Shown here piece after piece: positions 6,549 to 52,414 of a stretch of DNA of 52,414 nt. This DNA is from Burkholderiaceae bacterium. Lineage in GTDB: Bacteria > Pseudomonadota > Gammaproteobacteria > Burkholderiales > Burkholderiaceae_E. The DNA is taken from the NCBI GenBank assembly GCA_044359175.1, contig JBIKMO010000001.1, forward strand, positions 1-52,414, read 5' to 3'. A program made the translations under genes and the position numbers. Below the pieces are notes generated by a model. The model was not told the origin of the DNA. It did no database searches and saw nothing but the letters and a program-made list of their open reading frames with translations. The stretch's first letter is position 1; every line of letters begins with the position of its first letter.

Positions 6549-8102
6549 ATGTCCGTCGACCGGACGCCGCAGGGGGACGTGCAGGTGACGGGAACCGAGA
6601 CCCTGTGTCTGCGCGGCGCCCGGGTGCTCGCGCTCGATGACGCGGATACCGAGTGGGACGAGGCCGACGTCGTCGTCGAGGGCGCCCGCATCGTCGCCAT
6701 CGGCCCGGGCGCCGCGCAGGCGTTTTCGCGGCCGTTCGCGCGGACGATCGATGCGCGCGGCCTGCTCGCGATGCCGGGCCTCGTCAACGGCCACTTCCAT
6801 TCGCCGGGTAACCTGATGAAGGGGGGCCTGCCCGGCTACCCGCTCGAGCTGTTCATGTTGCACGAGGTGCCGCCGCTGGCCGAGGGCGGCGACGCCGTGC
6901 GGCTCGCCTACGTGCGGACCGCGATCGGCGCGCTGGAGATGCTGCGCCGGGGTGTGACCGCGGTCCACGACGACGCTTACCACGTGCCGATCGCGACGCC
7001 CGAGGGCATCGACGCGATCTTCGCCGCCTACCGCGACGCGGGCCTGCGCGCGACGGTGACGATCGACCAGCCCGAGCTCGTCGAGCACGAGAAGCTGCCC
7101 TGGATCGGCGAGATGCTTCCGCCCGACTTGAAGCGCGCGATGGACGAGGCGCCGAGGCAGTCGGGCGACGAGCTGATCGCCCTCTACCGCGGGATGATCG
7201 CGCGGTGGCACGGTGGCGAGGGCGGTCGGCTGCGCGTCGCGGTCTCGTGCTCGGCGCCGCAGCGGGTGAGCGTGCCGTACCTGCAGGCGCTGTCCGAGTT
7301 GTCGCGCGAGAACGATCTTCCGTTCGATGTCCACCTGCTCGAGACTCGCCTGCAGCGCGCGCATGCGCTGCTCGCCTGGGGCATGTCGCCGATCCGCCGG
7401 CTGCACGAGCTGGGCGTGCTCGACGAGCGGATGCTCGCGATCCACGCGATCTGGATCGACGAGGCGGACCTCGCGATGCTGGCCGACGCCGGCTGCACGG
7501 TCGCGCACAACCCGGTCTGCAACCTGCGCCTGGGCAGCGGCGTGATGCCCTGGCGCGCGCTGCACGACGCGGGCGTGCCGGTCTGCCTGGGGTCGGATGA
7601 GATGAACGCCGACGACAGCGTGAACCCGTGGTTCGTCGGCAAGACCGCGGCGCTGGTGCACACGCTCGCCAGCCCCGACTTCGACCGCTGGCCGAGGCCG
7701 GCCGAGGTGCTGCGCGCGATGACCCGCGGCGGCGCGCGCGGCATGCGCGCCGAGGGCGAGTTCGGCACGCTGTGCGTCGGCGCCCGCGCTGACCTGCTGC
7801 TGCTCGATCTGGACACCGTGGCCTTCACGCCGCTCAACGACCTGCGCCGTCAACTCGTCCATTGCGAGGACGGGCAGTCGCTGCGGATGACGATCGTCGA
7901 CGGACGCGTCGTCTACGACGCCGGCCGGATCACGACCGTTGACGAAGCCGCGCTGCGTGCCGAGATGCGCGAGCTGATGTTCGGCTTTCGCGCCCGCACC
8001 GCCGCCGCCGCCGCGCAGGCCGAACGCCTCGAGCCCTACTACCGTGCGATGCACGCCCGCGCGTCGACGCTCGACGTCGGGTTGCGCCGCACCCTCTACT
8101 GA
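6549..8102 (+). CDS. amidohydrolase family protein (cytosine/guanine/chlorohydrolase-type deaminase-like)
   Basis: Metal-binding GLVNGHFHS, HLLET, the MLAIHAIW region and CLGSDE. ATG 6549 is used here. GTG 6585, with AGGGGGA 7 nt upstream, is a plausible alternative start. Confidence 0.85.
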   Translation: MSVDRTPQGDVQVTGTETLCLRGARVLALDDADTEWDEADVVVEGARIVAIGPGAAQAFSRPFARTIDARGLLAMPGLVNGHFHSPGNLMKGGLPGYPLELFMLHEVPPLAEGGDAVRLAYVRTAIGALEMLRRGVTAVHDDAYHVPIATPEGIDAIFAAYRDAGLRATVTIDQPELVEHEKLPWIGEMLPPDLKRAMDEAPRQSGDELIALYRGMIARWHGGEGGRLRVAVSCSAPQRVSVPYLQALSELSRENDLPFDVHLLETRLQRAHALLAWGMSPIRRLHELGVLDERMLAIHAIWIDEADLAMLADAGCTVAHNPVCNLRLGSGVMPWRALHDAGVPVCLGSDEMNADDSVNPWFVGKTAALVHTLASPDFDRWPRPAEVLRAMTRGGARGMRAEGEFGTLCVGARADLLLLDLDTVAFTPLNDLRRQLVHCEDGQSLRMTIVDGRVVYDAGRITTVDEAALRAEMRELMFGFRARTAAAAAQAERLEPYYRAMHARASTLDVGLRRTLY

Positions 8103-8130
8103 CCCCGATGACCCCTCACGAGGATTCCCG

Positions 8131-9186
8131 ATGAACCATCGCCTGCTCTGCGCGTTCACCCTGTGCTCGCTGCTCGGCTTCTCGGCCCCGGCCGCCCACG
8201 CCGCCAACCCGACGTCGATGCGCGTCGCCGGCAACTTCTCGTCCAACAAGAACCACGTCGACGGGATCGAGCGGCCGTTCTTCACCGCGCTGCCCAAGCT
8301 GATGGGCACCGGCCTCGCGGTGAACTACAACCCGATGGACGTGCTCGGGGTGCAGGCCGCAGACGCGTTTCGCCTGTTGCGCTCCGGCACCTTCGACGTG
8401 ATGAGCGTGCAGATCGGCATGGCCTCGCGCGACGATCCTTTCTTCGAGGGTATCGACCTGATTGGCGTGTCCACGAACATGGAAGACCTGAAGAAGGCGG
8501 TCGACGCCTATCGCCAGGCGTTCGACGAGCGGTTGCAGAAGAAGTTCAACGCGAAGGTCATGACGCTGTGGCCGTTCGGCCCGCAGGTCTTCTACTGCAA
8601 CAAGCCGATCAAGTCGGTCGACGACCTGAAGGGGCTGAAGGTGCGCAGCTTCACGCCGTCGATGGCCGCACTGATCCAGAGCTTCGGTGCGACTCCGGTG
8701 ACGATGCAGTTCTCCGAGGTCTATCCGTCGCTGCAGCGCGGCGTGGCCGACTGCGGGGTGACTTCGCCCACGTCCGGCAATTCCGGCAAGTGGCCGGAGG
8801 TCACGACGCACTTCCTGCCGCTGTCGGTCTCCGGCTCGGTCCAGGGACATTTCATGAATCTCGACTACTGGAACAAGTTCTCGCCCGAGGTGCAGAAGAG
8901 CCTGATGGCGCAGTTCAAGAAGATGGAGGACGAGATGTGGTCGTTGGCCCATCGGGCCAACGGCGACGCGATGAATTGCAACGTCGGCAAGGAGCCTTGC
9001 AAGGAGGGCACGAAATTCTCGATGACGCTCGTGCCGGTTTCACCCGCCGACGAGAAGAAGGTGAAGGACGCGGTGACCAAGGTCGTGCTGCCGATCTGGA
9101 AGACCTCTTGCAACAAGATCGACCCGAAGTGCACCGAGATCTGGAACGCCACGGTCGGAAAGGCACGCGGCCTGAAGATCGATTGA
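8131..9186 (+). CDS. dctP: TRAP transporter substrate-binding protein (DctP family)
   Basis: Signal peptide MNHRLLCAFTLCSLLGFSAPAAHA/A. DctP-type motifs GLKVRSFTP and FSEVYPSLQRGVADCG. A GAGGA RBS precedes ATG 8131. It is followed by the Q and M subunits. Confidence 0.9.
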   Translation: MNHRLLCAFTLCSLLGFSAPAAHAANPTSMRVAGNFSSNKNHVDGIERPFFTALPKLMGTGLAVNYNPMDVLGVQAADAFRLLRSGTFDVMSVQIGMASRDDPFFEGIDLIGVSTNMEDLKKAVDAYRQAFDERLQKKFNAKVMTLWPFGPQVFYCNKPIKSVDDLKGLKVRSFTPSMAALIQSFGATPVTMQFSEVYPSLQRGVADCGVTSPTSGNSGKWPEVTTHFLPLSVSGSVQGHFMNLDYWNKFSPEVQKSLMAQFKKMEDEMWSLAHRANGDAMNCNVGKEPCKEGTKFSMTLVPVSPADEKKVKDAVTKVVLPIWKTSCNKIDPKCTEIWNATVGKARGLKID

Positions 9187-31703: not shown

Positions 31704-32762
31704 TCAGGCGGCACCGAACCGGATCACTCCGTCGTCACCGACCCGGCGCGCCAGCTGGCCCGCGTACCACAGCGCGTGCAGGTGGGCGAGCGACTCGCCC
31801 AGCGCGAACATCATCTGGTGGGCGTCGAACTCGCGGCCGAAGATCACCGGGACCATCGCCGCGGCGGTGCCGGGCCGCTCGCGGCACGCCGCCTCGACCA
31901 CGGCGAGCCGCTCGTCGTGATGCGCGCGCAGCTGCGCGATCCGACGGTGCAGCCCGCGAAACGGGCGGCCGTGCGAGGGCAGCACCAGCGTGTCCGGCGC
32001 GCATGGCTGGAAGCGCTCGAGCGACGTCAGGTACCAGGCGAGCGGGTTCGATTCCGGCTCCAGGTCGAAGACCGACACGTTGGTCGAGATCCGCGGCAGC
32101 ACCATGTCGCCGGAGATCAGCAGGCCGTCGTCCGCGGCGTGCAGCGCGGCGTGCTCCGGGGAGTGGCCGGTGCCCACGATCACGCGCCAGGTGCGGCCGC
32201 CGATCGGGATCGGCTCGCCGTCGACGATCCGTCGGAACGACAGCGGCATCGCCGGCACCAGCGACGGGAAGTGGCTGCGCACCCGACGTGACAGCGCCTC
32301 GAGCTGGGGCCCGTCGCTCATGCCGTGGCGCTTGTAGTGCTCGTAGCCGGAATTCGGGTTCGCCCCGGGCATCGCCACGGACAGGATCCGGCCCATCGCG
32401 TACTCGCCGAGCGTCATCCACAGCGGCGCATCGAACCGGTCGCACAGCATCCGCGCGAGCCCGACGTGATCCGGATGCGTGTGGGTGCACAGCACGCGCA
32501 CGATCGGCAGTCCGTCGAGCCCGTGGGCGAACAGCGTCTCCCAGTGCGCGCGGATCGCATCGGAGGCCACGCCGCAGTCGATCACCGTCCAGCCGTCGCG
32601 CCCGCGGAACGTGTCACGCAACAGCCACAGGTTGATGTGATCGAGCGCGAACGGCAGCGGCATGCGCAGCCAATGGATCCCGGGCGCGATCTCGCGCCGC
32701 ACGGCGGGTGCGGGCAGCGCATCGCCGAACGGGTAGGCGAGCTCGTGCTCGTGCGGATTCAT
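31704..32762 (-). CDS. MBL-fold metallo-hydrolase
   Basis: The THTHPDH motif (HxHxDH), GHSPEH and LPSHG. ATG 32762. The listed 1185-aa ORF is an upstream artefact. Confidence 0.85.
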   Translation of the reverse strand: MNPHEHELAYPFGDALPAPAVRREIAPGIHWLRMPLPFALDHINLWLLRDTFRGRDGWTVIDCGVASDAIRAHWETLFAHGLDGLPIVRVLCTHTHPDHVGLARMLCDRFDAPLWMTLGEYAMGRILSVAMPGANPNSGYEHYKRHGMSDGPQLEALSRRVRSHFPSLVPAMPLSFRRIVDGEPIPIGGRTWRVIVGTGHSPEHAALHAADDGLLISGDMVLPRISTNVSVFDLEPESNPLAWYLTSLERFQPCAPDTLVLPSHGRPFRGLHRRIAQLRAHHDERLAVVEAACRERPGTAAAMVPVIFGREFDAHQMMFALGESLAHLHALWYAGQLARRVGDDGVIRFGAA

Positions 32763-32990
32763 CGGTGCGGCATTCCCGGACGCTCCAGCCTGCCGCGAGT
32801 GTACCCGGGCCCCTCCGGGCGACCCCGGTCCGGCCGGGCTGGCCCGCGCGCGCCGCCGGGCCGGCCTGGCCTTCCGGGCGCGCCCGAACCCTCCTATGCT
32901 TGCGCCTGCGCCGCGCCGACCCTGCCCGATGACCCGACCGACGATCGACCGCGTCCCAAGCCCCCCGCCCCTCGGGTCGGATCGCCGCAG

Positions 32991-35234
32991 ATGACCGTGA
33001 CCGAGCCTTCCGTCGCCGTCAGGGCAGCTCGCATCGCGGTGTTCGCGCTCACGATCTTCGTGAGCGCGTTCCTGCTGTTCCAGGTCCAGCCGATGGTGAG
33101 CAAGGCGATCCTGCCCTGGTTCGGCGGCGGACCGGCGGTGTGGACCGCGGCCATGCTGTTCTTCCAGTGCGCGCTGTTCGGCGGCTACCTGTACGCGCAC
33201 GCGCTGGCGTCGATCCGCTCGGCGCGGCTGCAGGCGGCGGCGCACCTGCTGCTGCTCGCCGCCGCCGCGCTGCTCGCGCAGTCGGTGATCCCGGGAGCGG
33301 GCCTGCGGCCGGTGACCGAGCACTCGCCGGTCACGCAGATCCTGTGGATCCTCGCGCTCAGCGTCGGTCTGCCGTACTTCTGCCTGGCCAGCACCGGGCC
33401 GCTGCTGCAGCACTGGTTCGCGCGGGCCGCGGTCGCCGGCTCGGTATACCGGCTGTTTGCGCTGTCGAACCTCGGGTCGCTGCTCGCGCTGCTGTCGTTT
33501 CCGTACCTGTTCGAGCCATGGTTCGAGCTGCCCGCGATCGGTGCGGGCTGGACCTGGGGGTTCTGGCTGTTCGCGATCGCCTGCGGCACCGTGGCCCTGA
33601 TCCAGGTCCGCGCAATCGAGGCGCGCACCGACGCGGGGGCCCCGCAGGCCGAGCGGTCCGCAGACCCGCCGACCCCGCATGCGTCCGGCGCCGCCGGTGG
33701 GTCCGGGCGCTGGCGCGAGACCGCGTCCTGGGTGCTGCTGCCCGCGCTCGCCTCGGTGCTGTTCATCGCGACCACGGATCAGGCGAGCCACAACATCGCG
33801 CCCGAGCCTCGGCTGTGGATCCTCACGCTGTCGATCTACCTGCTCACCTTCATCGTGAGCTTCGATCATCCGCGCTGGTATCGGCCCGGGCCGGTCGCGG
33901 CGCTGGCGCTGATTGCGGTGCTGGGCGTGGCCGGCCGGTACGCGATCCCGGACCTGTTCGACTGGGACGTGAGCTACGGTGCGGCCGATCTGCGCTACCT
34001 GTTCGCGCTGATGCTGTTCCTGGTCTGCCTGGTGTGCCACGGCGAGCTCTATCGGCGACGCCCGTCGGACCCCGCCCGCCTGACCGCGTACTACCTTTGG
34101 ATGTCGTTCGGCGGCGCGTGCGGTGGGCTGTTCATCGCGCTGGTCGCCACGCATCTGTTCGCCGACTTCCACGAGTGGCCGATTGCGCTGGCGGCCGGCG
34201 CCGCGCTGTGCGTTCGGGTGATCGCGCGCGAGGTCCGCGGCCGCTGGGGCCGGGACGGACCGCAGCCGGGCGCGCGCACGCTCCTCGGTCGCATCCCGGT
34301 GGGGCTCGCCACCCTGGTCTGCGCGGGGCTCGCCTTCTGGTGGGACAACCCGGTGCGTGGTCGCACCGGTGCGATCGCGGGCGCGGCCGAATCCACGCTC
34401 GATCAGTCGCGCAACTTCTACGGCGTGGTCGCGGTGGTGGAGCGCCGCTTCCCCGAGGACCCGTCGCGCGATCACCGGGTCTTCTACAGCGGTCAGGTCA
34501 CCCATGGGATCCAGCTGATCGGCCCAGGGCGGCAGCGTCAGCCCGTCAGCTACTACGACCGCGACAGCGGGATCGGCGAGACGCTCGAGTACCTGAAGTC
34601 GCGCAAGCCCGCGCTCGACGTCGCGGTCACCGGGCTGGGCGCGGGGACGGTGGCGCTGTACGCCCGGCCCACCGATCGCTACGACTTCTTCGAGATCAAC
34701 CCCGAGGCCGAGCGCATCGCCCGCGGCTGGTTCACCTTCCTGGCCGACTCGCCGGCGCGCGAACTGCGGGTGCTGATCGGCGATGCCCGGCTCACGTTCG
34801 CCCGTCTGCCCGAGGGCACCCGCTACGACCTCATCCTGCTCGCCGCCTTCAGCGGTGGCTCGGTGCCCGTGCACCTGCTCACGCGCGAGGCGTTCGCCCA
34901 GTACGCCGAGCGCCTGGCCCCCGACGGCTTCCTGGTGGTCAACATCACCAACGCATACCTGAACCTGTATCCGGTGGTGAAGCGGCAGGCCGAGGCGCTC
35001 GGGATGGCGGTGCGCAGCCGCTTCCAGGAGCGGGACCCGAAGCGCTTCATCCGCGAGAACCACTACATGATCCTCACCCGGGACGCCGACTACCTGCGCG
35101 CGTATCCGTCGGTCGACCGCCCGATCCGCGACGCCGAGGGCCGGGTGATCGGAACCCGCCAGTACGACCTGCCCGGGGTCGGCCTGTGGACCGATGCGTT
35201 CAGCAGCATCACGCCGCTCGAGTGGCGTGACTGA
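32991..35234 (+). CDS. fused polytopic membrane domain / spermidine-synthase-like (class I methyltransferase fold) protein
   Basis: The N-terminal ~450 aa contain many TM helices. The C-terminal part contains VAVTGLGAGTVALYARPTDRYDFFEINPE...DLILLAAF...APDGFLVVN, typical of SpeE-like folds. ATG 32991. Confidence 0.8.
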   Translation: MTVTEPSVAVRAARIAVFALTIFVSAFLLFQVQPMVSKAILPWFGGGPAVWTAAMLFFQCALFGGYLYAHALASIRSARLQAAAHLLLLAAAALLAQSVIPGAGLRPVTEHSPVTQILWILALSVGLPYFCLASTGPLLQHWFARAAVAGSVYRLFALSNLGSLLALLSFPYLFEPWFELPAIGAGWTWGFWLFAIACGTVALIQVRAIEARTDAGAPQAERSADPPTPHASGAAGGSGRWRETASWVLLPALASVLFIATTDQASHNIAPEPRLWILTLSIYLLTFIVSFDHPRWYRPGPVAALALIAVLGVAGRYAIPDLFDWDVSYGAADLRYLFALMLFLVCLVCHGELYRRRPSDPARLTAYYLWMSFGGACGGLFIALVATHLFADFHEWPIALAAGAALCVRVIAREVRGRWGRDGPQPGARTLLGRIPVGLATLVCAGLAFWWDNPVRGRTGAIAGAAESTLDQSRNFYGVVAVVERRFPEDPSRDHRVFYSGQVTHGIQLIGPGRQRQPVSYYDRDSGIGETLEYLKSRKPALDVAVTGLGAGTVALYARPTDRYDFFEINPEAERIARGWFTFLADSPARELRVLIGDARLTFARLPEGTRYDLILLAAFSGGSVPVHLLTREAFAQYAERLAPDGFLVVNITNAYLNLYPVVKRQAEALGMAVRSRFQERDPKRFIRENHYMILTRDADYLRAYPSVDRPIRDAEGRVIGTRQYDLPGVGLWTDAFSSITPLEWRD

Positions 35235-42413: not shown

Positions 42414-43676
42414 ATGGCTTTCGAGGACGACCGCGGGCTGCCGCTCGCCACCGGCTCGCGCGAGGCGCGCGATGCGTACTGCGACGGCGTCGCACGGCTG
42501 CTGTGCGCACGACCCGGCATCGAGGTCGCGCTGCAGGCGGCGGTTGCGGCCGATCCGGGTTTCTCGCTCGCGCACGCCGCGCTCGCGCGGGCGCACCAGG
42601 CCCACGGTCGCGGCGCGGCGGCGCGCGAGGCGATCGCGGTCGCGCGCGCGTGCGACGCGGCCTCCGAGCGCGAGCGCTCGCACGTGCATGCGCTCGATCG
42701 CGTGGTCACGGGCGACGCCGGTGGCGCGCTCGCGGCGATCGTCGCGCACCTCGGGCGCTGGCCGCGCGACGTGCTGGTGATGGCGCCGTGCACCGGGGTG
42801 TTCGGCCTGTTCGGTTTCTCGGGCCGCGAGGGCCGCGAGCGCGCGCTGCGCGAGTTCATCGAGCCGTTCGCGCCCGCACTGGGCGACGACGGCTGGTACC
42901 TTGCCAGTCGGGCGTTCGCGCGCTGCGAGACCGGGGCGCTCGCGGCGGCACGTGCCGACGTCGAGCGCGCGCTCGTGCTCGAGCCGCACAGCGCCCACGC
43001 CGCGCACGTGCATGCGCACGTGGGCTACGAGGAGGCCGAGGATGCGGCGGTGCTCGCCTGGCTGCGCGACTGGCTGACGGACTATCCGCGCGCCGGGATG
43101 ATGCACGGCCACCTGCACTGGCACCTCGCGCTCTCGGCGCTCGCGGTCGGCGACCTCGCGGACGCCCGCGCGACCTACGCGGCGGCGATCGCCCCCACGG
43201 CGTCGTGGGGGCCGCCGCTGAACCGGGTGACCGACACCACGTCGTTCATGCTGCGCGCGGCACTGTGCGGCGATCCGGTCGCGCCCGCGGTCTGGCGCGA
43301 GCTCGCCGAGGTGGCGCGCGGCACGTATCCGCAGCCCGGGGTCGCGTTCGCGGACGCTCATGTCGCGCTGGCGCTCGCGATGGCGGGCGAACACGCGGCA
43401 CTCGCCGGAGTGCGCGAGCGGGCGAGCGGCCCGGCCGCGGACGTGGTGGTCGCGCTGATCGATGCGTTCGTCGCGTTCGTCCGCGGCGACGACGCCGGCA
43501 CGCTGCGTGCGCTCGAACCGGTGCTGCCGCGCCACGAGCGCATCGGCGGCAGCCGCGCGCAGCGCGACCTGATCGAGCAGCTCGCCTGGGTGGCGATGCG
43601 GCGCGGCGGGCTCGACGTCGGATGGCGTCCGCGCGCCGGGCGTCCGATGCCACCCGGGCTGCGCGCGCCGACCTGA
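42414..43676 (+). CDS. TTC38-like tetratricopeptide-repeat protein
   Basis: The N-terminus DDRGLPLATGSREARDAYCDGVARLL...AVAADPGFSLAHAALA, plus the HGHLHWHLAL motif, is typical of the bacterial TTC38 family from memory. A GGAGG RBS precedes ATG 42414. Confidence 0.65.
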   Translation: MAFEDDRGLPLATGSREARDAYCDGVARLLCARPGIEVALQAAVAADPGFSLAHAALARAHQAHGRGAAAREAIAVARACDAASERERSHVHALDRVVTGDAGGALAAIVAHLGRWPRDVLVMAPCTGVFGLFGFSGREGRERALREFIEPFAPALGDDGWYLASRAFARCETGALAAARADVERALVLEPHSAHAAHVHAHVGYEEAEDAAVLAWLRDWLTDYPRAGMMHGHLHWHLALSALAVGDLADARATYAAAIAPTASWGPPLNRVTDTTSFMLRAALCGDPVAPAVWRELAEVARGTYPQPGVAFADAHVALALAMAGEHAALAGVRERASGPAADVVVALIDAFVAFVRGDDAGTLRALEPVLPRHERIGGSRAQRDLIEQLAWVAMRRGGLDVGWRPRAGRPMPPGLRAPT

Positions 43677-43689
43677 GGCGCGCGCAGTG

Positions 43690-43722
43690 CCGCCGGGCGG
43701 TGCGGGACGCACCGCCCGGCGG
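43690..43722 (+). terminator. strong GC hairpin (15-bp perfect stem, 3-nt loop GGA) after the TTC38-like gene
   Basis: CCGCCGGGCGGTGCG GGA CGCACCGCCCGGCGG, read directly, 14 nt after the stop. No U-tract follows, so it may be a terminator or an RNA-stability element. Confidence 0.5.
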
Positions 43723-43816
43723 GCCCCTGCGGTACCGCCCGATCCTCGGCACCGCCCCCGGTTCTGGCGGGCGGCGGGCGGGCGCAGGCAGAATCACGGG
43801 CAGTCGATCCGTCGCC

Positions 43817-44830
43817 ATGTCCGCCGCGCCGCTGACCCACCACGAGATCCTCGCGATCGTCGCGCCGTTCGCGCGCCGCGGCCTGCGCGTGGACCTCGGT
43901 GCGAGCGACCGCTTCGCCCGGCGCATCGCGTTCCGTGACGCCGAGCGCCCGGCGGACGACGCGCGCGGTCTGCCGGCGCTGCGCGAGTCCCTCGCGCTCG
44001 AGCCGCGCGATGCGGGCGGCTGGCGGCTGGTGCGCACGCTCGCGTGCGCCGACGGGCCGGCGTCCATGCTGACCCTGGCCGGTGCGCCGCCCGACGGGCT
44101 GCTCGCCGCGCTCGAGGCGGTCGACCTCCGGCGTCAGCTCGAGGCCGGGCCGGGCTGGGTGCTGGCGATCGACCAGCGGCTGGAGCTCGCGAGCGGCGCG
44201 TTCGATCCCTCGCACCCCGCGTCGGCGGGGGCCGCGCTGGTGCCGACCCGCGGCGTCGTGCGCACCCACGGCGTCGAGCTGACCATGACGATCCCGACCG
44301 TGAGCGGGATCTCGGCGGACATCGCGATCGCGGTCGGCGAGGGCGACCCGATCGAGCTGCCGGACGACCTGCTCGCAGTGCTCGGACGCGCGTGGGGACG
44401 GCTCGACCGCCGCGGCCGGGGCTGGAGCAGTCATGTCGGACTCTCCGGCAGTGGCGCGGCCCGGCTGCGCGACGCCGAGGCGCGGCTGCGCACGATGGCC
44501 GTGCACCTCGCGCACACGCTGTCCGAACCGCCGGCCCGCTACCACGAGCGGCTGCGTGCCGCGCGCTGGCGCACCGCCGCGCGGCGCACGGTGCCGCTGC
44601 TCGCGTGTCTCGGGCTGATCGCCGCCGCGGGTTCGGTGCCGAGCCTGGGCATCGCACGCGAGTCGCCGATCTGGATGCTGATCTTCAACGCGCCGCCGCT
44701 GCTGCTGGTCGCCTTCTTCTGTCTGCGCGAGATGCCGCGCATCGAGCTGCCGCGGATGCCGCGCGCACCCGCGGCGCCCTCGTGGCGCCCCGCGCCGCAG
44801 GACGGCGCGCCCGTGCGCCCGTCGGCCTGA
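43817..44830 (+). CDS. hypothetical protein, C-terminally membrane-anchored (two predicted TM helices)
   Basis: 337 aa with high GC3. I recognise no motif. The C-terminus has VPLLACLGLIAAAGSVPSLGI and IWMLIFNAPPLLLVAFFCL. Its stop lies inside the GAGG RBS of the next gene. Confidence 0.7.
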   Translation: MSAAPLTHHEILAIVAPFARRGLRVDLGASDRFARRIAFRDAERPADDARGLPALRESLALEPRDAGGWRLVRTLACADGPASMLTLAGAPPDGLLAALEAVDLRRQLEAGPGWVLAIDQRLELASGAFDPSHPASAGAALVPTRGVVRTHGVELTMTIPTVSGISADIAIAVGEGDPIELPDDLLAVLGRAWGRLDRRGRGWSSHVGLSGSGAARLRDAEARLRTMAVHLAHTLSEPPARYHERLRAARWRTAARRTVPLLACLGLIAAAGSVPSLGIARESPIWMLIFNAPPLLLVAFFCLREMPRIELPRMPRAPAAPSWRPAPQDGAPVRPSA

Positions 44831-44840
44831 GGCGCACGCG

Positions 44841-45944
44841 ATGACCGCCGACCCGATGAACGTGCCGCCGGTCTCGATCGCCACGGCCAAGGCCGCGCTG
44901 ATCGAGCAGTTCGCCGACCCGGTGCTGCGCCGGCGCGCGACGATGCTCTGGGGTACCCGCGGGGTGGGCAAGTCCTCGATCGTGCGCCAGCTCGCCGAAC
45001 GCTTCGGCGTGCCGCTGGTCGACCTGCGCCTCACCACGATCGAACCGGTGGACCTGCGCGGGGCGATCTACGCCGACGACACGCAGCGGCGCACCGTCTG
45101 GTTCCCGCCCGAGTTCCTGCCGACCGACGACCTGCCCGAGGGCATTCTGTTCCTGGACGAGCTCACCGCCGCGGACCAGCGGCTGCAGATCTCGGCGTAC
45201 TCGCTGATCCTGGATCGGCGGGTCGGCCGCTACCGTCTGCCCGACGGCTGGATGGTGGTCGCCGCGGGCAACGCGAGCAGCCACGGCGCGGTCAGCCACG
45301 AGATGGGCACCGCGCTCGCCGACCGGATGTTCCACTTCAACGTGCGCACCTCGATCGACGCGTTCCTCGCCTACGCGATCGAGCACGGCTTCGCACCCGA
45401 GGTGATGGCCTACCTGCGCGTGCGTCCCGACCGGCTGGACGACACCGCGGCCCAGCTCGCCGCCGATCACCTGGTGGGCGCGAGTCCGCGCGGCTGGGAG
45501 GACGTGTCCGCCGTGCTCCGGTCCGGGCTCACCGAGGCCGGCAAGCGCGCGTTCGTGCAGGGCCGCATCGGAGCAGCGAACGCCGCGGAGTTCTTCGGCG
45601 TGCTGCGCGAGCTCGCCGCGGCGGTCGACGTCACGAGGCTGCTCGCCGCCGCCCCGGGGCCGCAGACCGCGGCGCTGCTGCCGCGCACGCTGGATGCGCT
45701 GTACGGCATGGTCTACGGCCTGCTCGCGGCGGCGACCGACGCGCCCGCGATGGCGCGCGCGCTGCAGATCGTCGACCAGCTGCCGGACGCGGCGACGCGC
45801 GAGCCGCTGCCGGTGCGCGAGGCGCAGACGCTGTCGATGGAGCTGCTGATGCAGCGCGCGCTCGAGCGGGGTCTGGAGACCGCGATCCTCGACAGTCCGG
45901 CGTACCAGCGGCACCTCGACCGGCGGGCGGGCCGCACCCCGTGA
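44841..45944 (+). CDS. MoxR-like AAA+ ATPase
   Basis: Walker A GTRGVGKSS, Walker B ILFLDELTAAD, sensor-1-like VVAAGN, and the ALADRMFHF region. Confidence 0.85.
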   Translation: MTADPMNVPPVSIATAKAALIEQFADPVLRRRATMLWGTRGVGKSSIVRQLAERFGVPLVDLRLTTIEPVDLRGAIYADDTQRRTVWFPPEFLPTDDLPEGILFLDELTAADQRLQISAYSLILDRRVGRYRLPDGWMVVAAGNASSHGAVSHEMGTALADRMFHFNVRTSIDAFLAYAIEHGFAPEVMAYLRVRPDRLDDTAAQLAADHLVGASPRGWEDVSAVLRSGLTEAGKRAFVQGRIGAANAAEFFGVLRELAAAVDVTRLLAAAPGPQTAALLPRTLDALYGMVYGLLAAATDAPAMARALQIVDQLPDAATREPLPVREAQTLSMELLMQRALERGLETAILDSPAYQRHLDRRAGRTP

Positions 45945-47206
45945 GCGAGGCCGCGCCCGCGCTCGCGATCCATCGCGCGAGCCGCGCGGTCGAACGGATG
46001 GTCGAGCACGCACCGGCCACCGGCGGGCTCGCACTGTGGCTGCGCCACGTCGAGGCGCCCGAGGGCGATGCGGCGCCGCCGGCGTCCACCGACGGCCACG
46101 TGATCGCGTACGCGCCGTCGTTCGACGCGCTGCCGCTGCCCGAGCAGGCCGGCTGGGTCGCGCACCAGGTGCTGCATGTCGCGCTGCGCCACCCGCAGCG
46201 CCTGACCGAGCTGCGCGAACGGATCGGCGACGTCGACGCCCGGCTGTTCTGCACCTGCGCGGACGCGATCGTCAACTCGGCGCTCGGCCACCTGGCGTGG
46301 CTGCGGCTGGCGCCGGGTGCGCCGACGCTGGAGGCGCTGCTGGTGACCACGCTGGCGCTCCATCAGGACGTCGGCCGCTCGCTGCTCGAGTGGGACGTGG
46401 AGCGCCTGTATCGCACGATCGACGATCGGCTGCCGCCGAGCGACGGCCGGCCGCGCCGCGACGGTCCGCGCGCGGCGCGGGTGCGAGCGCTCGGCGCCGG
46501 CACACCGATCGACCTGCGCCGCTGCGACGATGCGCGCGACGCGCCCGAGGCGCGCGCCGAGCAGGCCCGCGACTGGGCCGAGCGACTGGTCCGCGCACAC
46601 GCCGGCGACGGCGCGCACTCGATGCTGCGCACGCTGCTCGCCGACCTGCCGCGATCGCGCACGCCCTGGGAGCAGGCGCTGCGGGTTCGGCTGGCGCGCG
46701 CGCTCGCCAGCCGCCCCGAGCCGTCCTGGTCGCGGCCCTCGCGCTCGTGGCTCGCCAACCGGGGCCGGGCCGGGCCCGGGCGTCGGCTGCCCTGGGAGCC
46801 GGGCTGGGTGTCGAGCCGACGCGTACCGCGTCTCGCGCTCGTGGTCGACGTCTCGGGTTCGATCGACGACGCGCTGCTCGGGCGCTTCGCCCGCGAGATC
46901 GATTCGATCACGCGGCGCGCCGAGGCGGGGCTGGTGCTTGTGATCGGCGACGACCGGGTGCGGCGGGTCGAGCACCGCGCGCCCGGCGACAGCGGCCTGC
47001 GCGAGCTGGCTCTGCAGGGCGGTGGCGGCACCGACTTCACGCCGCTGCTGGAGGAGGCCGATACGCACCGGCCGGACGTCGGCATCGTGCTCACCGACCT
47101 CGAGGGCCCCGCGCGCTTCCGGCCGCGCTGGCCGCTGACCTGGGCGGTGCCGGCCTCGCATGCGCGCGTGACCGCGCCGTTCGGGCGGCTGCTGGTGCTC
47201 GACTGA
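45941..47206 (+). CDS. putative metallopeptidase-like domain + VWA-like domain protein (COG3864 / DUF2201-type)
   Basis: The N-terminal region carries HQVLHVALRH where this family has HExxH. The C-terminal VWA has MIDAS-like VVDVSGSI, GGGGTDFTP and VLTDLEG. GTG 45941 overlaps the ATPase stop (GTGA). Confidence 0.8.
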   Translation: MSEAAPALAIHRASRAVERMVEHAPATGGLALWLRHVEAPEGDAAPPASTDGHVIAYAPSFDALPLPEQAGWVAHQVLHVALRHPQRLTELRERIGDVDARLFCTCADAIVNSALGHLAWLRLAPGAPTLEALLVTTLALHQDVGRSLLEWDVERLYRTIDDRLPPSDGRPRRDGPRAARVRALGAGTPIDLRRCDDARDAPEARAEQARDWAERLVRAHAGDGAHSMLRTLLADLPRSRTPWEQALRVRLARALASRPEPSWSRPSRSWLANRGRAGPGRRLPWEPGWVSSRRVPRLALVVDVSGSIDDALLGRFAREIDSITRRAEAGLVLVIGDDRVRRVEHRAPGDSGLRELALQGGGGTDFTPLLEEADTHRPDVGIVLTDLEGPARFRPRWPLTWAVPASHARVTAPFGRLLVLD

Positions 47207-47267: not shown

Positions 47268-48197
47268 TCAGTCGCGGGCGGTCGGTTCGCTCAGCAGCCG
47301 CAGCACCACCGCGTCGTCCAGGTGTCCCCAGCCGCGCTCGAACGCACGCTCGAAGACCGTGTGGGCCGCGGCGCCGAGCGGCGCCTCGAAGCCGGCGTCG
47401 TGCGCTGCGCGCAGTGCGAGCGCGGTGTCCTTGCGCAGCAGCGTGACCTGCGCGCGCGGCGCGTAGTCGCCGGCGATCGCGCGACGCATCCGGTCCGAGC
47501 CGACCCAGCTCTGGCCGCTGGACTGCTCGATCACCGCGAGCACGGTATGCAGGTCCATGCCCAGGCGCTGCGCGAGCGCCAGCGCCTCGGCGGCGCCGAC
47601 CAGGTTGATGCCGGCGAGCAGGTTGTTGACCAGCTTCATCCGGGCGCCGTCACCCGGTCGCCCGCCGACGACGAACGGCCGGCTCGACAACGCCTCGAGC
47701 AGCGACCGGTGCGACGCGTGCACCGCCGGCGCGCAGCCCACCATCAGGCTCATCGTCCCGTCGGCGGCGCGCTGCGGTCCGCCGGACATCGGCGCGTCGA
47801 TCGTCGCGGCACCGTCCTCGGCCAGGCGCGCCGCGAACCGCTCGACGTCCTCGGGCGCGATCGTCGGGCACAGCATCACCGTGTGCCCCGCGAGCCCGCC
47901 GGAGCGCGCGTGCACGCCGGCCTCGCCCCACAGCACGGCCTCGCACTGCGCTGCGTCGACCACCGCCACGATCGTGATCGGCACCTGCGCAGCGGCCGTG
48001 GCCGCGTCGGGGCAGGCGACGGCGCCGCGCACCGCCAGCGCGTCGACCTTGCCGCGCTCCAGGTCGTGTACCCGAACCCGCCAGCCGCGGGCGAGCAGGT
48101 TGAGCGCCATGCCCCCGCCCATGTTGCCGATGCCGACGACGCCGACGCTGCGGCCGCCGGGCGGGGAGGGTGGGCACGGATCGTCGGGCACGGGCAC
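47268..48197 (-). CDS. NAD(P)-dependent oxidoreductase, 3-hydroxyisobutyrate dehydrogenase family
   Basis: Contains VGVVGIGNMGGGMALNL (GxGxxG), the TIDAPMSGGP region and KLVNNLL. Start is GTG 48197 or 48191. The ORF to 48401 overlaps the upstream gene. Confidence 0.85.
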   Translation of the reverse strand: MPVPDDPCPPSPPGGRSVGVVGIGNMGGGMALNLLARGWRVRVHDLERGKVDALAVRGAVACPDAATAAAQVPITIVAVVDAAQCEAVLWGEAGVHARSGGLAGHTVMLCPTIAPEDVERFAARLAEDGAATIDAPMSGGPQRAADGTMSLMVGCAPAVHASHRSLLEALSSRPFVVGGRPGDGARMKLVNNLLAGINLVGAAEALALAQRLGMDLHTVLAVIEQSSGQSWVGSDRMRRAIAGDYAPRAQVTLLRKDTALALRAAHDAGFEAPLGAAAHTVFERAFERGWGHLDDAVVLRLLSEPTARD

Positions 48198-50016: not shown

Positions 50017-50493
50017 ATGCTGATCCAGCTGATCTACGTGAGCAAGGCGGTCGGCCCGCAGACGCCGCAGACCACCGAGGCCATCCTGCGCACTGCGCGC
50101 GCGTTCAATGCGGCGAACGACGTCACCGGGGTGCTCTGCGAGGGGCAGGGCGTGTACCTGCAGGCGATCGAAGGCGAGAGTCGGACCGTCACGGCGCTGT
50201 ACGCCCGGATCGCTGCCGATCCGCGCCACGGCGACCTGACGCTGATCCACTGCGAGAGCATCGCCGAGCGCCGCTATGGCGCCTGGACGATGGCGCGGGT
50301 GGATCTCTCCGACGTGGATCCCCAGACCCGCATCGACTGGCCGGCGCTCGACCCGTACTCGGCCCGAGGCCGGCAGGTGATGGCGCGCATCGACGAGCTG
50401 CTCGCGCTCGCGCCGGCGGGCGGGCACCCGACGGGCGCGCCCGCCGCCGGGTCCGACCCGCAGCCGCCCGGGGCGTTGCCCGGCACGCGCTGA
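50017..50493 (+). CDS. short BLUF-domain photoreceptor
   Basis: MLIQLIYVSKA (Tyr7), GVYLQAIEGE (Gln49), DPRH, and YGAWTMA (Trp90/Met92). This spacing matches the canonical BLUF photoactive residues. About 60 aa of C-terminal tail follow, partly Pro/Gly/Ala-rich. Confidence 0.85.
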   Translation: MLIQLIYVSKAVGPQTPQTTEAILRTARAFNAANDVTGVLCEGQGVYLQAIEGESRTVTALYARIAADPRHGDLTLIHCESIAERRYGAWTMARVDLSDVDPQTRIDWPALDPYSARGRQVMARIDELLALAPAGGHPTGAPAAGSDPQPPGALPGTR

Positions 50494-50562: not shown

Positions 50563-50820
50563 ATGAAGCGCTGGGGCATGACCGGCGAGCCGTTCGGTAC
50601 GCCCGCCGACCGGCGCCACTGCGAGACGCTCCTCGGGCCGGTCATCGACACGCTGCGCGCGCTCGCCGAGGATTCATGCGCGATCGAGTGCGTCGTCGGC
50701 GTCGACGGCAGCCCGAGCTGCGGGGTCGACCGGACCTGCGTCGGCGACGAGGGCGGCGAGCCCGAGGACCTCGCGAGGAACGGGACCCTGCCGAGCGCCC
50801 GACTCACCTTCAGCGTCTGA
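50563..50820 (+). CDS. small hypothetical Cys-rich protein
   Basis: 85 aa with very high GC3, which supports coding. It has 5 Cys including GSPSCG. It lies 69 nt downstream of the BLUF gene on the same strand, and its 3' end overlaps the convergent ORF by 11 nt. Confidence 0.5.
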   Translation: MKRWGMTGEPFGTPADRRHCETLLGPVIDTLRALAEDSCAIECVVGVDGSPSCGVDRTCVGDEGGEPEDLARNGTLPSARLTFSV

Positions 50821-52414
50821 GCGCGCCGAAGTAGTGCGCGTTGAAGGTGGTGACCCAGGGCGCGGTCGCCTCGACGCCGTTCGGGTGGCGCGGCAGCGCG
50901 GTTTCGTGCAACCAGCGCACCAGGTTCGATTCGTCCTGGCGCAGCGTCGTGCGCCAGGACAGCAGCGCGGCGGCCACCGAGGACTTGACGCCCGAGGCCA
51001 CGAGCGCAGCCGGCAACTTCGCCGGTGGACTCGCGACGCCGATCGTCTCCTTCAGGGAGTCGGCGCTGCCTGCGAACATCGCATACCCGAGGGCGGACTC
51101 GAGGTCGCGCGAGCGCTGCCGGCGCTCCACCTCGGCGGCGGCCAGCCCCAGGAACTCGCCGAGCACCCGTGCGCGGTGATAGCCGGGCGGTTCGCCGTTG
51201 CGTGCCGACTGCGCCGACAGCCAGTCCATCGGTGAGGTGTTCGCTTGCGGGCCACGCTGCAGCTGGACGATGAACACGCCCGCCTGAGCCGACAGGCCGG
51301 TGTCCAGCAGCGCGCCGACGTAGCCGCGCAGCGCTTGGCGACCGCTGCTGCCGCCGCGGCCGGTCTGCAGCAGCGTGTTGTCGATCACGCCGCCGACGTC
51401 GGTGGCGATCACCGCCGACAGCGCGGCGAGCAGCTCGCGACGCACCGGGAGCGCGCTGGTGTTGAGTTGGCGGCTCTGCGCGAGGATCGGGCCGGCGGCG
51501 GCGACGAACGACGCCTTCTCTCGCGCGTTCGCGCTCTTCGACGCCGCGGCGGCCAGCCGTCGGAACAGCGACGGGTCACCGCGGACCTGCACCACGGTGC
51601 TGCCGAAGGCTCCGGTGGTCACCTGGGTGTCGAGCGGCAGCGCGGCGGCGACCATCGCATCGGTCGCAGGCCGGCCGAGCGCCGCGAACGCCGCCTCGAC
51701 CTCGGCCGCATTGCGCATTCCCGCGAACAGTTCCGCAGTCGCCCGTGCCGTCCCCGGCACGTCGCGGACCGCGTCGTCGGACAGCCGCTTGAGCAGCCCC
51801 AGCCGCTGCTCGAAGGTGCCCCGCCTGCCGACCGCCCGGGCGAAGTCGATCATCGTCGCCACCGCGGTCCCCGAGCGGCGCCGCTCGCCGCCGCTGGACG
51901 CATGCGCGATCCGATGCAGACTCGCCGGGTCCTGATCCGCGACCAGGTGCTCGAACAGCTGCCGGCGCTGTCTCGCATCGAGCGGGCCCAGGCCGAACAT
52001 GCCGGGCTGGGCCGATTCGGCGATCCAGCGCTGCAGCATCGAGCCGCGGGGCGACGCGGTGTTGGCGAGGCCGACCACCAACGCCTGCCGCTCGGCGCCC
52101 GTCAGTTGCTCGACCGTCCGGCTCAGCGTGGCCAGGTCGCGCCGCCAGACCACGGGACCGCCGAGCGCCCGGGCTGCCTCGGTCCGGGCCTGCGCCACGC
52201 GGGCAGGGTCGAACTGTCCCGGTGTGGCGTACAGCAGGGTTCCGATGCCGCCGGTGTCGACCTGCCGTTGCGCCCACTGCCGTACCGCGGCGCGATCGGC
52301 GAGGCCCGCCGGCACCCGATAGGTCGAGGTCCGCGAACGAACGACCGCGTGCCCGGAGGCGTGGCGGCCCATCACGAGCTGACCCCGGGAGGTACCGATG
52401 AAGTCGCCGGGTCG
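50810..52414 (-). CDS. large hypothetical protein, no recognisable domain, probably 5'-partial
   Basis: The frame has high GC3 and stays open upstream of the listed GTG/ATG (52375/52372) to the window edge. The protein is Ala/Arg/Leu-rich and helical-looking, with no motif I can name. Confidence 0.6.
   Translation of the reverse strand, partial: RPGDFIGTSRGQLVMGRHASGHAVVRSRTSTYRVPAGLADRAAVRQWAQRQVDTGGIGTLLYATPGQFDPARVAQARTEAARALGGPVVWRRDLATLSRTVEQLTGAERQALVVGLANTASPRGSMLQRWIAESAQPGMFGLGPLDARQRRQLFEHLVADQDPASLHRIAHASSGGERRRSGTAVATMIDFARAVGRRGTFEQRLGLLKRLSDDAVRDVPGTARATAELFAGMRNAAEVEAAFAALGRPATDAMVAAALPLDTQVTTGAFGSTVVQVRGDPSLFRRLAAAASKSANAREKASFVAAAGPILAQSRQLNTSALPVRRELLAALSAVIATDVGGVIDNTLLQTGRGGSSGRQALRGYVGALLDTGLSAQAGVFIVQLQRGPQANTSPMDWLSAQSARNGEPPGYHRARVLGEFLGLAAAEVERRQRSRDLESALGYAMFAGSADSLKETIGVASPPAKLPAALVASGVKSSVAAALLSWRTTLRQDESNLVRWLHETALPRHPNGVEATAPWVTTFNAHYFGALRR

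Follow-up and report, generated by a model that had tools for sequence, protein, structure and literature searches.

A MoxR AAA+/VWA gene pair of a Burkholderiaceae bacterium is linked to a candidate new family of membrane proteins

Introduction

Gene pairs that encode a MoxR-type AAA+ ATPase and a protein with a VWA domain are, to our knowledge, among the commonest uncharacterised ATP-driven machines of prokaryotes, and the client on which they act is mostly unknown. What, then, does such a pair act upon? The question is posed in a particular form by a stretch of 52,414 nucleotides from a Burkholderiaceae bacterium (assembly GCA_044359175.1, contig JBIKMO010000001.1, positions 1 to 52,414; hereafter the window), in which a pair of this kind (genes 2 and 3) follows directly upon a gene for an unnamed protein with two predicted transmembrane (TM) helices (gene 1). 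A first-pass annotation, made from the letters of the window, had regarded the three genes as an operon and as a candidate undescribed system, possibly one of conflict or signalling. Here we show that gene 1 is linked to the pair, and inherited with it, at nearly all the loci that could be compared, and we suggest, with about even confidence and by analogy to characterised MoxR/VWA machines, that the trio is a chromosomally inherited, three-component remodelling machine that works on the cytoplasmic side of the inner membrane and has gene 1 for its client or dock. What is new is the third component of this ternary module, apparently a structurally unmatched family of membrane proteins; the pair itself is known.

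Characterised machines of this general type provide the point of reference. In NorQ/NorD and CbbQ/CbbO a MoxR hexamer binds one VWA protein, the metal ion-dependent adhesion site (MIDAS) of which binds surface carboxylates of the membrane target; the variable N-terminal domain of the VWA protein has been suggested as the determinant of specificity (bioRxiv 10.1101/2022.11.16.516607). MoxR ATPases comprise seven named subfamilies: MRP, APE0892, RavA, CGN, APE2220, PA2707 and YehL (PMC3893208). In addition, Kaur, Burroughs, Iyer and Aravind (2020) proposed ternary MoxR-vWA systems with a variable third component (VMAP, iSTAND, FtsH or a beta-propeller) as conflict systems (PMC7159879).

Three tightly coupled genes

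The three genes are co-oriented and lie exactly where the first-pass annotation had placed them: gene 1 at 43817-44830 (+; 337 aa), gene 2 at 44841-45944 (+; 367 aa) and gene 3 at 45941-47206 (+; 421 aa). Public gene calls on the source contig, a 239,927-bp metagenome contig (ENA ERZ28008908 k141_1815991), independently give products of the same three lengths. Only 10 nt separate the stop codon of gene 1 from the start codon of gene 2. A GAGG element had been reported within this gap; the gap stands, but the element, read directly, does not lie wholly inside it. This Shine-Dalgarno-like GAGG (44829-44832, +) overlaps the TGA of gene 1 and is placed 8 nt 5' of the gene 2 ATG at 44841. Genes 2 and 3 share the 4-nt start/stop overlap GTGA (45941-45944) that had been noted at the outset.

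Gene 2 encodes an AAA+ ATPase of the MoxR/AAA_5 type. The match to Pfam AAA_5 covers the full profile (aa 35-163; 27.9 bits against a cut-off of 22, E 2.6e-6), and the Walker A (GTRGVGKS, aa 38-45) and Walker B (ILFLDE, aa 102-107) motifs recognised on first reading are both intact. Constraint on the protein is strong: in 77 orthologues 174 of the 367 columns are invariant or nearly so, with K44, S45, D106, E107, N144 and R162 invariant. From their positions, N144 and R162 are the likely sensor 1 and Arg finger. The score against AAA_3 (MRP type) is only 13.3 bits and that against the bpMoxR model 18.5 bits, below the cut-off of 27; NCBIfam returned no equivalog, PADLOC-DB v2 only P-loop-level noise (E of at least 0.015), and sequence relatives in the PDB are midasin AAA modules only.

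Gene 3 combines a zincin-like domain (DUF2201_N, aa 11-288; 194.4 bits, E 3.7e-57) with a minimal VWA domain (DUF2201, aa 298-421; 118.9 bits, E 1.8e-34), both above the Pfam cut-off and in N-to-C order. The MIDAS motif DVSGS (aa 303-307; 46847-46861, +) is joined downstream by the MIDAS-type residues T364/D365 and T385/D386. D303, S305, G306 and S307 are invariant in 68/68 orthologues, and T364, D365, T385 and D386 are likewise invariant among orthologues, so that the MIDAS is complete. Structure models, here and below, are of monomers. The AlphaFold (AF2) model of gene 3 has a mean predicted local distance difference test (pLDDT) score of 77.7, and its top Foldseek matches are mostly VWA/integrin I domains, with a probability of 1.00 for those. 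Between the two domains lies a linker (aa ~233-290) with many invariant positions that is disordered in the isolated model (pLDDT below 50 at residues 233-260 and 266-274).

A candidate new membrane-protein family

The first-pass annotation could recognise no motif in the 337-aa product of gene 1, and wider searches leave it equally without a name. There is no match in Pfam, NCBIfam, PADLOC or PHROGs at E<=0.1, none among PDB sequences at E<=10, and no well-characterised family to which the protein could be assigned. Homologues number at least 331 among the scored candidates, every one labelled 'hypothetical'. A profile search of 1.84 billion representatives places the family in 479 clusters at 50% identity (E<=1e-3); the 150 clusters listed show, apart from some fragments, one architecture of ~300-450 aa, and no informative fusion was found among them. 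The AF2 monomer is of high confidence (pLDDT 91.6; predicted TM-score 0.86). Foldseek comparison of this model with the PDB and BFVD gave nothing at E<=1e-3 (best PDB match E 0.04 with a TM-score of 0.16; best BFVD match E 0.016), and weak matches to a double-hotdog dehydratase and to SAS-6 (TM-scores of 0.1-0.16) were dismissed. On this model, gene 1 appears to represent a previously undescribed family of inner-membrane proteins, the structure of which has no detectable relative in the PDB or BFVD.

The predicted protein consists of a cytoplasmic alpha/beta domain (aa 1-210), a helical stalk (aa 213-257), a TM hairpin and a cytoplasmic tail. The two C-terminal helices of the first reading are borne out by hydropathy and charge: TM1 (aa 259-277) and TM2 (aa 284-301) are joined by a loop of ~11 residues, the hairpin being encoded at 44591-44719 (+). 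Net charge is +5.3 ahead of TM1 and +2.4 beyond TM2, with ~0 in the loop between them, on which basis we predict an N-in/C-in topology, with N-terminal domain and tail both cytoplasmic. Conservation is concentrated in an N-terminal stretch (PLTHHEIL...PFARRG...DL.ASDR), in LPDDLLAVLG, in TM2 and in the tail (REMPRIE.P..PR....W). H8 and H9 are invariant, and E10, D26, D31 and H230 near-invariant. TM2 carries the near-invariant motif MLIFNAPPLLL; its F290 and P293 show no variation and its P294 almost none. The juxtamembrane tail (aa 304-323; 44726-44785, +), modelled at pLDDT 75-87, retains E305 in 44/45 sequences, while P307, P312, P315 and W323 are invariant.

The trio is inherited as a unit

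If gene 1 is the partner of the pair, then the two should be found together in other genomes. A scan of GTDB, with one genome per species, detected relatives of gene 1 in 309 of ~185,000 species. We inspected the best 80 loci plus four from metagenomes; 80 of these had enough downstream sequence. Gene 1 is syntenic with the AAA+/VWA pair in 76 of the 80 (in Beta-, Gamma- and some Alphaproteobacteria-labelled genomes), which bears out the expectation of the first-pass annotation that gene 1 homologues would be conserved beside the pair. At 74 loci the AAA+ gene stands directly 3' of gene 1 and is followed by the VWA gene. Spacing is tight (median gaps of 15 nt between genes 1 and 2 and -8 nt between genes 2 and 3), an indirect hint of co-transcription. 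Genes 2 and 3 are adjacent in 67/67 loci measured for both, with a gap of <=100 nt in 64, and a search begun from gene 3 matches instead again recovered trios.

Two linked loci are rearranged. At L030 (Methylibium sp. NZG), the sole interrupted trio, gene 1 and the AAA+ gene are separated by an alpha/beta-hydrolase gene on the opposite strand (408-aa frame; 6960-8186, -). At L076 the order is gene 1, AAA+, VWA and a second copy of gene 1. This second copy belongs with the gene 1 copies of the four unlinked loci (L062, L068, L072 and L075) to a paralogue, type B, recognisable by 'YHVPTLL' in TM2 and by the tail LQEMPRFEIPPWPR (L062:6001-6984; L068:1914-2846; L072:6001-6945; L075:1-942; L076:6001-6933). 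The metagenome-assembled genome (MAG) from which the L075 copy derives also carries a complete trio (L023). In L062, and apparently in L072, the type B gene follows directly after genes for an OmpR-type response regulator and a histidine kinase.

Does the module extend beyond three genes? All-against-all clustering of neighbours at ~82 loci, aimed at a conserved fourth gene or a client enzyme, gave only lineage-specific synteny. The next commonest neighbours are an Rv2258c-like methyltransferase (10 of the ~82 loci) and HpaB (9). The former, an S-adenosylmethionine-dependent enzyme with a winged-helix domain, is encoded divergently, on the opposite strand upstream of gene 1, at L004, L007 and eight other loci, and is not present in the window. 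Because the flanking genes vary and no other neighbour recurs, the module is autonomous and ends with the three genes. The neighbourhoods inspected held genes of ordinary cellular kinds, and none contained a mobile-element or defence gene.

The three genes also share their history. Pairwise distance matrices are correlated (gene 1 with gene 3, r = 0.84; gene 1 with gene 2, r = 0.71; Mantel p = 0.001), and the median identity to the window across loci is 45% for gene 1, 60% for gene 3 and 77%, the highest, for gene 2. Most carriers belong to the Burkholderiales, in the group of Rubrivivax, Methylibium, Rhizobacter, Piscinibacter and Rhodoferax; the others are Methyloversatilis, Thiocapsa, Steroidobacteraceae, Nevskiaceae and some Alphaproteobacteria-labelled MAGs. 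Sequences cluster by genus: seven Thiocapsa species fall together, as do four Methyloversatilis. Many hosts are purple bacteria and a gene for a BLUF protein lies near the trio in the window; a link to phototrophy was nevertheless dropped, because hosts that are not known to be phototrophs, such as Methyloversatilis, Methylibium, Rhizobacter and Steroidobacteraceae, carry the trio as well.

Relatives in phages and on plasmids

The pair, as distinct from gene 1, has viral relatives. Gene 2 matches phrog_1297 (E 2.7e-68) and gene 3 matches phrog_1314 (E 5.3e-37) in PHROGs, and 825 phage records match gene 2, N4-like, rV5-like and jumbo phages among them. The AAA+ homologue occurs also in the rV5-like phages; the pair is found in the N4-like and jumbo phages. 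In N4-like phages the genes for gp24 and gp25 are adjacent and stand in the same order as genes 2 and 3. BLASTP aligns gene 2 with N4-like gp24 at 28% identity over 320 aa (E 1e-33). The gene 3 profile aligns with N4-like gp25 over 322 columns (hhalign probability 98.2%, E 3.9e-14), and the alignment takes in the HExxHxxxxH zincin motif (HELWHVAYLH in gp25), the linker motifs PW.Q.L and W.RP.R, the DVSGS of the MIDAS and a GGT. Judged by sequence, genes 2 and 3 are homologous to the gp24/gp25 pair, with an identity to phage proteins of ~24-35%. Both gp24 and gp25 are core genes of the N4-like viruses (Schitoviridae), and no function is stated for gp25 (PMC7650795). Working from sequence analysis alone, Iyer et al. 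suggested that the MoxR and peptidase-vWA pair of jumbo phages takes part in virion assembly; they also proposed peptidolytic processing for the phage versions (PMC7824862).

The first-pass annotation had considered the locus a candidate undescribed system. This holds for the gene 1 family but not for the pair, which is already known from phages as the gp24/gp25 type. Both proteins, their gene order and their tight coupling are shared with the N4 pair. The differences lie elsewhere: the phage pairs have no gene 1 homologue in our searches (PHROGs, BFVD, IMG/VR and the inspected phage neighbourhoods gave none), and the cellular pair is not located in a phage genome. It sits on the chromosome, groups by genus and shows much stronger conservation, and the copy in the window has lost the catalytic Glu of the zincin motif.

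In the course of this comparison we noted that phrog_1314 carries the label 'HNH endonuclease', which has spread into phage genome records (for example St11Ph5 gp25, L085:4474-5649). The label looks wrong, because the alignment shows a zincin-like HExxHxxxxH together with a VWA domain and MIDAS.

Large plasmids carry more distant relatives of gene 3 (in Ralstonia, Cupriavidus and Allomeiothermus) that correspond to its VWA part only, and gene 1 matches no plasmid. In the two that were inspected, those of Ralstonia and Allomeiothermus, the context differs from that of the trio: on the Ralstonia plasmid there is an intervening 297-aa protein without a visible hydrophobic helix, and on the Allomeiothermus plasmid the gene 3 relative lies near SSB and ParB genes.

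Is gene 3 a peptidase?

Gene 3 had been described as fusing an HExxH-type region to a VWA domain with a DxSGS motif. The second half of this description is correct, with DVSGS present; the first is not, for the window reads HQVLH (aa 75-79). The complete motif, HQVLHVALRH (aa 75-84; 46163-46192, +), is a degenerate zincin motif that keeps three His residues and has Gln in place of the catalytic Glu. Nor is the window alone in this. Of 68 orthologues, 54 have E at position 76, nine have A, three Q and two T. Glu is thus replaced in 14/68 (~20%), seemingly in several separate lineages, with five of these in the window's own clade of six sequences. H75, H79 and H84, by comparison, are kept in 66-68 of the 68. 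Neither the rest of the protein nor the operon has decayed in orthologues that lack the Glu. The orthologue at L006 goes further still: its motif, VANAVLHVAFRH, lacks the first zinc-ligand His as well as the catalytic Glu, with the remainder of the protein and the operon intact.

Because Glu is replaced in about a fifth of orthologues, whereas the His residues are essentially invariant and the MIDAS fully so, peptide-bond hydrolysis is probably not the conserved activity of the zincin-like domain, and we predict that gene 3 of the window is catalytically inactive as a peptidase. The annotation 'predicted metal-dependent peptidase' (COG3864) should accordingly not be taken at face value for gene 3. 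This correction of the usual annotation, like the unmatched structure of gene 1 (PDB, BFVD), stands independently of any model for the function of the trio. No functional study came to light in literature searches on DUF2201, COG3864, PF09967, PF13203 and the corresponding InterPro identifiers, in agreement with the initial statement that the AAA+/COG3864-type pair has no experimentally defined role.

A model for the trio and its alternatives

How might three such proteins work together? By analogy to NorQ/NorD and CbbQ/CbbO, gene 2 would form an ATP-hydrolysing hexameric ring and serve as the motor, and gene 3 would be the adaptor, a single copy of which docks on the ring; its linker, conserved as far as phage gp25, is a candidate contact with the ring or pore. 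The MIDAS of gene 3 would grip a carboxylate on a partner, and that partner would be gene 1, a membrane hairpin acting as client or dock. As ligand we propose, by preference, Glu305 of the REMPRIE tail, or else invariant acidic residues in the N-domain of gene 1. Driven by ATP hydrolysis, gene 1 or something that it holds in the membrane would then change in conformation or state of assembly, and the zincin-like domain might function mainly as a metal- or peptide-binding domain that confers specificity. The output would be the maturation or remodelling of a membrane-associated assembly in a housekeeping or stress-related context, rather than immunity.

The known systems lend the model its outline and also mark its limits. 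NorQ/NorD, CbbQ/CbbO and CoxD/CoxE share with the trio an AAA_5-type ATPase encoded beside a protein that has a family-specific N-domain and a C-terminal VWA domain with MIDAS, and in systems of the NorQ/NorD type the client or dock is, as we suppose here, embedded in the membrane. However, no member of the trio has an NCBIfam or Pfam match to NorQ, CbbQ or NorD, and the trio departs from NorQ/NorD in its zincin-like N-domain, in its minimal ~124-aa VWA domain and in having a protein of unmatched fold in place of a nearby enzyme target. The linkage to a client enzyme seen in NorQD, CbbQO and CoxDE has no counterpart, as no additional neighbour occurs in more than 10 of the ~82 loci. RavA/ViaA of E. 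coli is comparable as a MoxR/VWA two-gene operon acting on inner-membrane respiratory complexes (PMC3893208), but belongs to another MoxR subfamily, has neither a zincin-like domain nor a membrane partner gene in the operon, and shows no match at the level of sequence.

The first-pass suggestion of a conflict system deserves particular scrutiny, since ternary MoxR-vWA systems have been proposed in exactly that role (PMC7159879) and likewise join a conserved third gene in an operon to those for a MoxR ATPase and a vWA protein. The pair would then sense an invader or restrain an effector, and gene 1 would depolarise or permeabilise the membrane in abortive infection. Relatives of the pair among N4-like phage core genes and on conjugative-type plasmids are compatible with this, as is a distribution restricted to 309 species; so too is the highly conserved, kinked TM2 with its Asn and Pro-Pro, which exceeds what a passive anchor would need. 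Yet PADLOC-DB v2 holds no match for genes 1 and 3 and no meaningful one for gene 2, the bpMoxR score falls short of its cut-off, and the flanks are metabolic and free of mobile or defence genes. Gene 1 contains no VMAP, iSTAND, FtsH, beta-propeller, effector or effector-associated domain (EAD), and, as a third component of one invariant architecture, shows none of the effector swapping or variable repertoire that marks those systems. The AAA+ protein is unusually conserved (median 77% identity), the module is present in every sampled species of Thiocapsa and Methyloversatilis with clustering by genus, its position is syntenic across the window's clade, and neither viral contigs nor plasmids yielded a match to gene 1. 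The proposal is thus unsupported by these data and we consider it quite unlikely; a housekeeping or stress-related role is preferred because of the single gene 1 architecture, the conserved motor, the metabolic neighbourhoods, the clustering by genus and the absence of PADLOC matches.

Three further explanations concern the chemistry or the origin of the locus. Many characterised MoxR/VWA pairs, such as NorQD and CoxDEF, mature metal centres (PMC3893208; bioRxiv 10.1101/2022.11.16.516607), and the trio might do likewise in a chelatase-like manner: gene 1 would serve as the dock, and metal handled by its N-terminal His-His-Glu and by the gene 3 His triad would be inserted into a membrane enzyme whose gene lies elsewhere. 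The retention of H75, H79 and H84 even where the catalytic Glu is gone, and the invariant H8 and H9 and near-invariant E10, D26, D31 and H230 of gene 1, would fit. No metalloenzyme gene, on the other hand, is a conserved neighbour (the methyltransferase and HpaB are the best on offer), the L006 orthologue does without the first His, and metal binding is read from the residues themselves; the probability of this explanation is, in our estimate, rather low. Lower again is that of a proteolytic switch, in which the ATPase would present gene 1 to the zincin domain and the cleaved cytoplasmic domain would act as a signal in the style of an anti-sigma factor. The predicted design of gene 1, a large cytoplasmic domain on a membrane hairpin, suits such a mechanism, the HExxH...H motif is intact in 54/68 orthologues, peptidolytic processing has been proposed for the phage versions by Iyer et al. 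(PMC7824862), and at two loci type B copies follow a response regulator and histidine kinase. Against these stand the loss of Glu in ~20% of orthologues, in several apparent lineages including that of the window and without decay of protein or operon, and the want of any Pfam-detectable DNA-binding or sigma-binding domain in gene 1; we regard the switch as very unlikely. Finally, the strong matches to phrog_1297 and phrog_1314 might mark the locus as a decaying remnant of a prophage or other integrated element that carries an N4-type pair and has no cellular function. Three intact frames under strong constraint across at least 80 species, no phage genes nearby in the window, an identity to phage proteins of only ~24-35% and a GC content equal to that of the surroundings all speak otherwise, and the conservation data essentially refute it.

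Several observations weigh against a membrane-face remodelling machine of the kind that we prefer. Neighbour clustering at the ~82 loci brought to light no target enzyme or process. With HExxH retained in 54/68 orthologues, proteolysis may be of importance to the majority of lineages. Instead of a client, gene 1 could be a docking site or an effector. Its claim to an unmatched fold covers the PDB and BFVD only. The closest relatives of the pair outside the clade sit on phages and plasmids, which would fit a conflict role too. Lastly, distances between classes level off at ~0.30-0.34; as they are about equal, some old horizontal transfer of the trio is likely on this evidence.

The preferred model has the merit that it can be put to experiment. 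With a candidate client or dock encoded in the same operon, the target of a DUF2201-type pair becomes a testable three-protein problem, and cultured hosts exist in Rubrivivax, Thiocapsa roseopersicina, Rhodoferax and Methyloversatilis. An answer for the trio would carry over to phage biology, since N4-like phages have the pair as a core module and it occurs also on large plasmids and in jumbo phages; it is the combination of a built-in candidate client with a tie to a core phage gene pair that raises the value of the question and makes it experimentally tractable. A bolder idea, to which we attach a low but appreciable probability, is that gene 1 is a family of new fold and the natural client or receptor of the N4 gp24/gp25-type machine, and that the phage pair analogously hijacks or remodels a membrane target of the host. 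If true, the cellular trio would show that this widespread phage and plasmid pair is directed at a membrane-embedded hairpin assembly, and gene 1 would offer the first functional handle on a Schitoviridae and jumbo-phage pair that has gone unexplained for decades.

Boundaries, promoter and neighbouring genes

The 5' boundary of the unit is formed by a GC hairpin (43690-43722, +), an inverted repeat with a 15-bp perfect stem and 3-nt loop that had been pointed out in the first-pass annotation and indeed exists as described. Its 15-nt arms (43690-43704 and 43708-43722) are 100% complementary, and the 71-nt context folds with -50.9 kcal/mol (z = -3.3; 1 of 200 shuffles as stable). A scan for the terminator consensus did not call the hairpin, which has no T-tract. 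It begins 14 nt past the stop (43676) of an upstream + strand gene for a 418-aa protein, and for this reason is probably the terminator of that gene. A second perfect inverted repeat (43659-43687; arms of 11 nt, spacer of 7 nt) runs across the stop codon of this 418-aa gene, so that the two together make tandem stem-loops. The possibility that the hairpin is a repeated element akin to repetitive extragenic palindromic (REP) sequences was rejected, as it occurs once within the window. On the 3' side the unit meets a convergent gene, also as first described: an NAD_binding_2 dehydrogenase gene (3-hydroxyisobutyrate-dehydrogenase-like) that ends at 47268, 61 nt from the stop of gene 3. The intergenic sequence after gene 3 yields no sign of a terminator, folding no better than shuffles (z -0.88).

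As promoter element we suggest CAGAAT (43789-43794, +), 28 nt 5' of the gene 1 ATG, as a candidate -10 box for the operon. CAGAATC is present in 17/74 regions upstream of gene 1 orthologues, against 0.45 expected from shuffles, and within the window's own clade the CAGAAT(C) box stands 27-29 nt before the ATG. A strict sigma-70 scan found nothing, and a search upstream of gene 1 for sigma-54, RpoH, RpoE, LexA and Fur boxes gave only one chance RpoE-like match. Rfam detected no RNA element in the whole window, the G+C content of which is 70-77%.

The flanks of the trio are metabolic, with Ldh_2, TctC, UxuA and Amidohydro_3 genes upstream and, downstream, the NAD-binding dehydrogenase and an acyl-CoA synthetase. 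The 418-aa protein encoded immediately 5' of the trio (42420-43676, +) has no Pfam match and elsewhere stands outside the trio. Its gene is also upstream at L004, L007, L008, L010 and L011, in several of these beside the Amidohydro_3 gene, which itself recurs at the window-related loci L004 and L006-L008. Two long frames have coding-type G+C content at third codon positions (GC3) and no Pfam match: one of 980 aa (32292-35234, +; GC3 0.88; Pfam searched at E<=1e-4), and one of at least 534 aa (50810-52414, -) that runs off the end of the window. The BLUF (blue-light sensor) gene mentioned above encodes a protein of 158 aa (50017-50493, +) and is situated ~2.8 kb past the trio, beyond two convergent metabolic genes.

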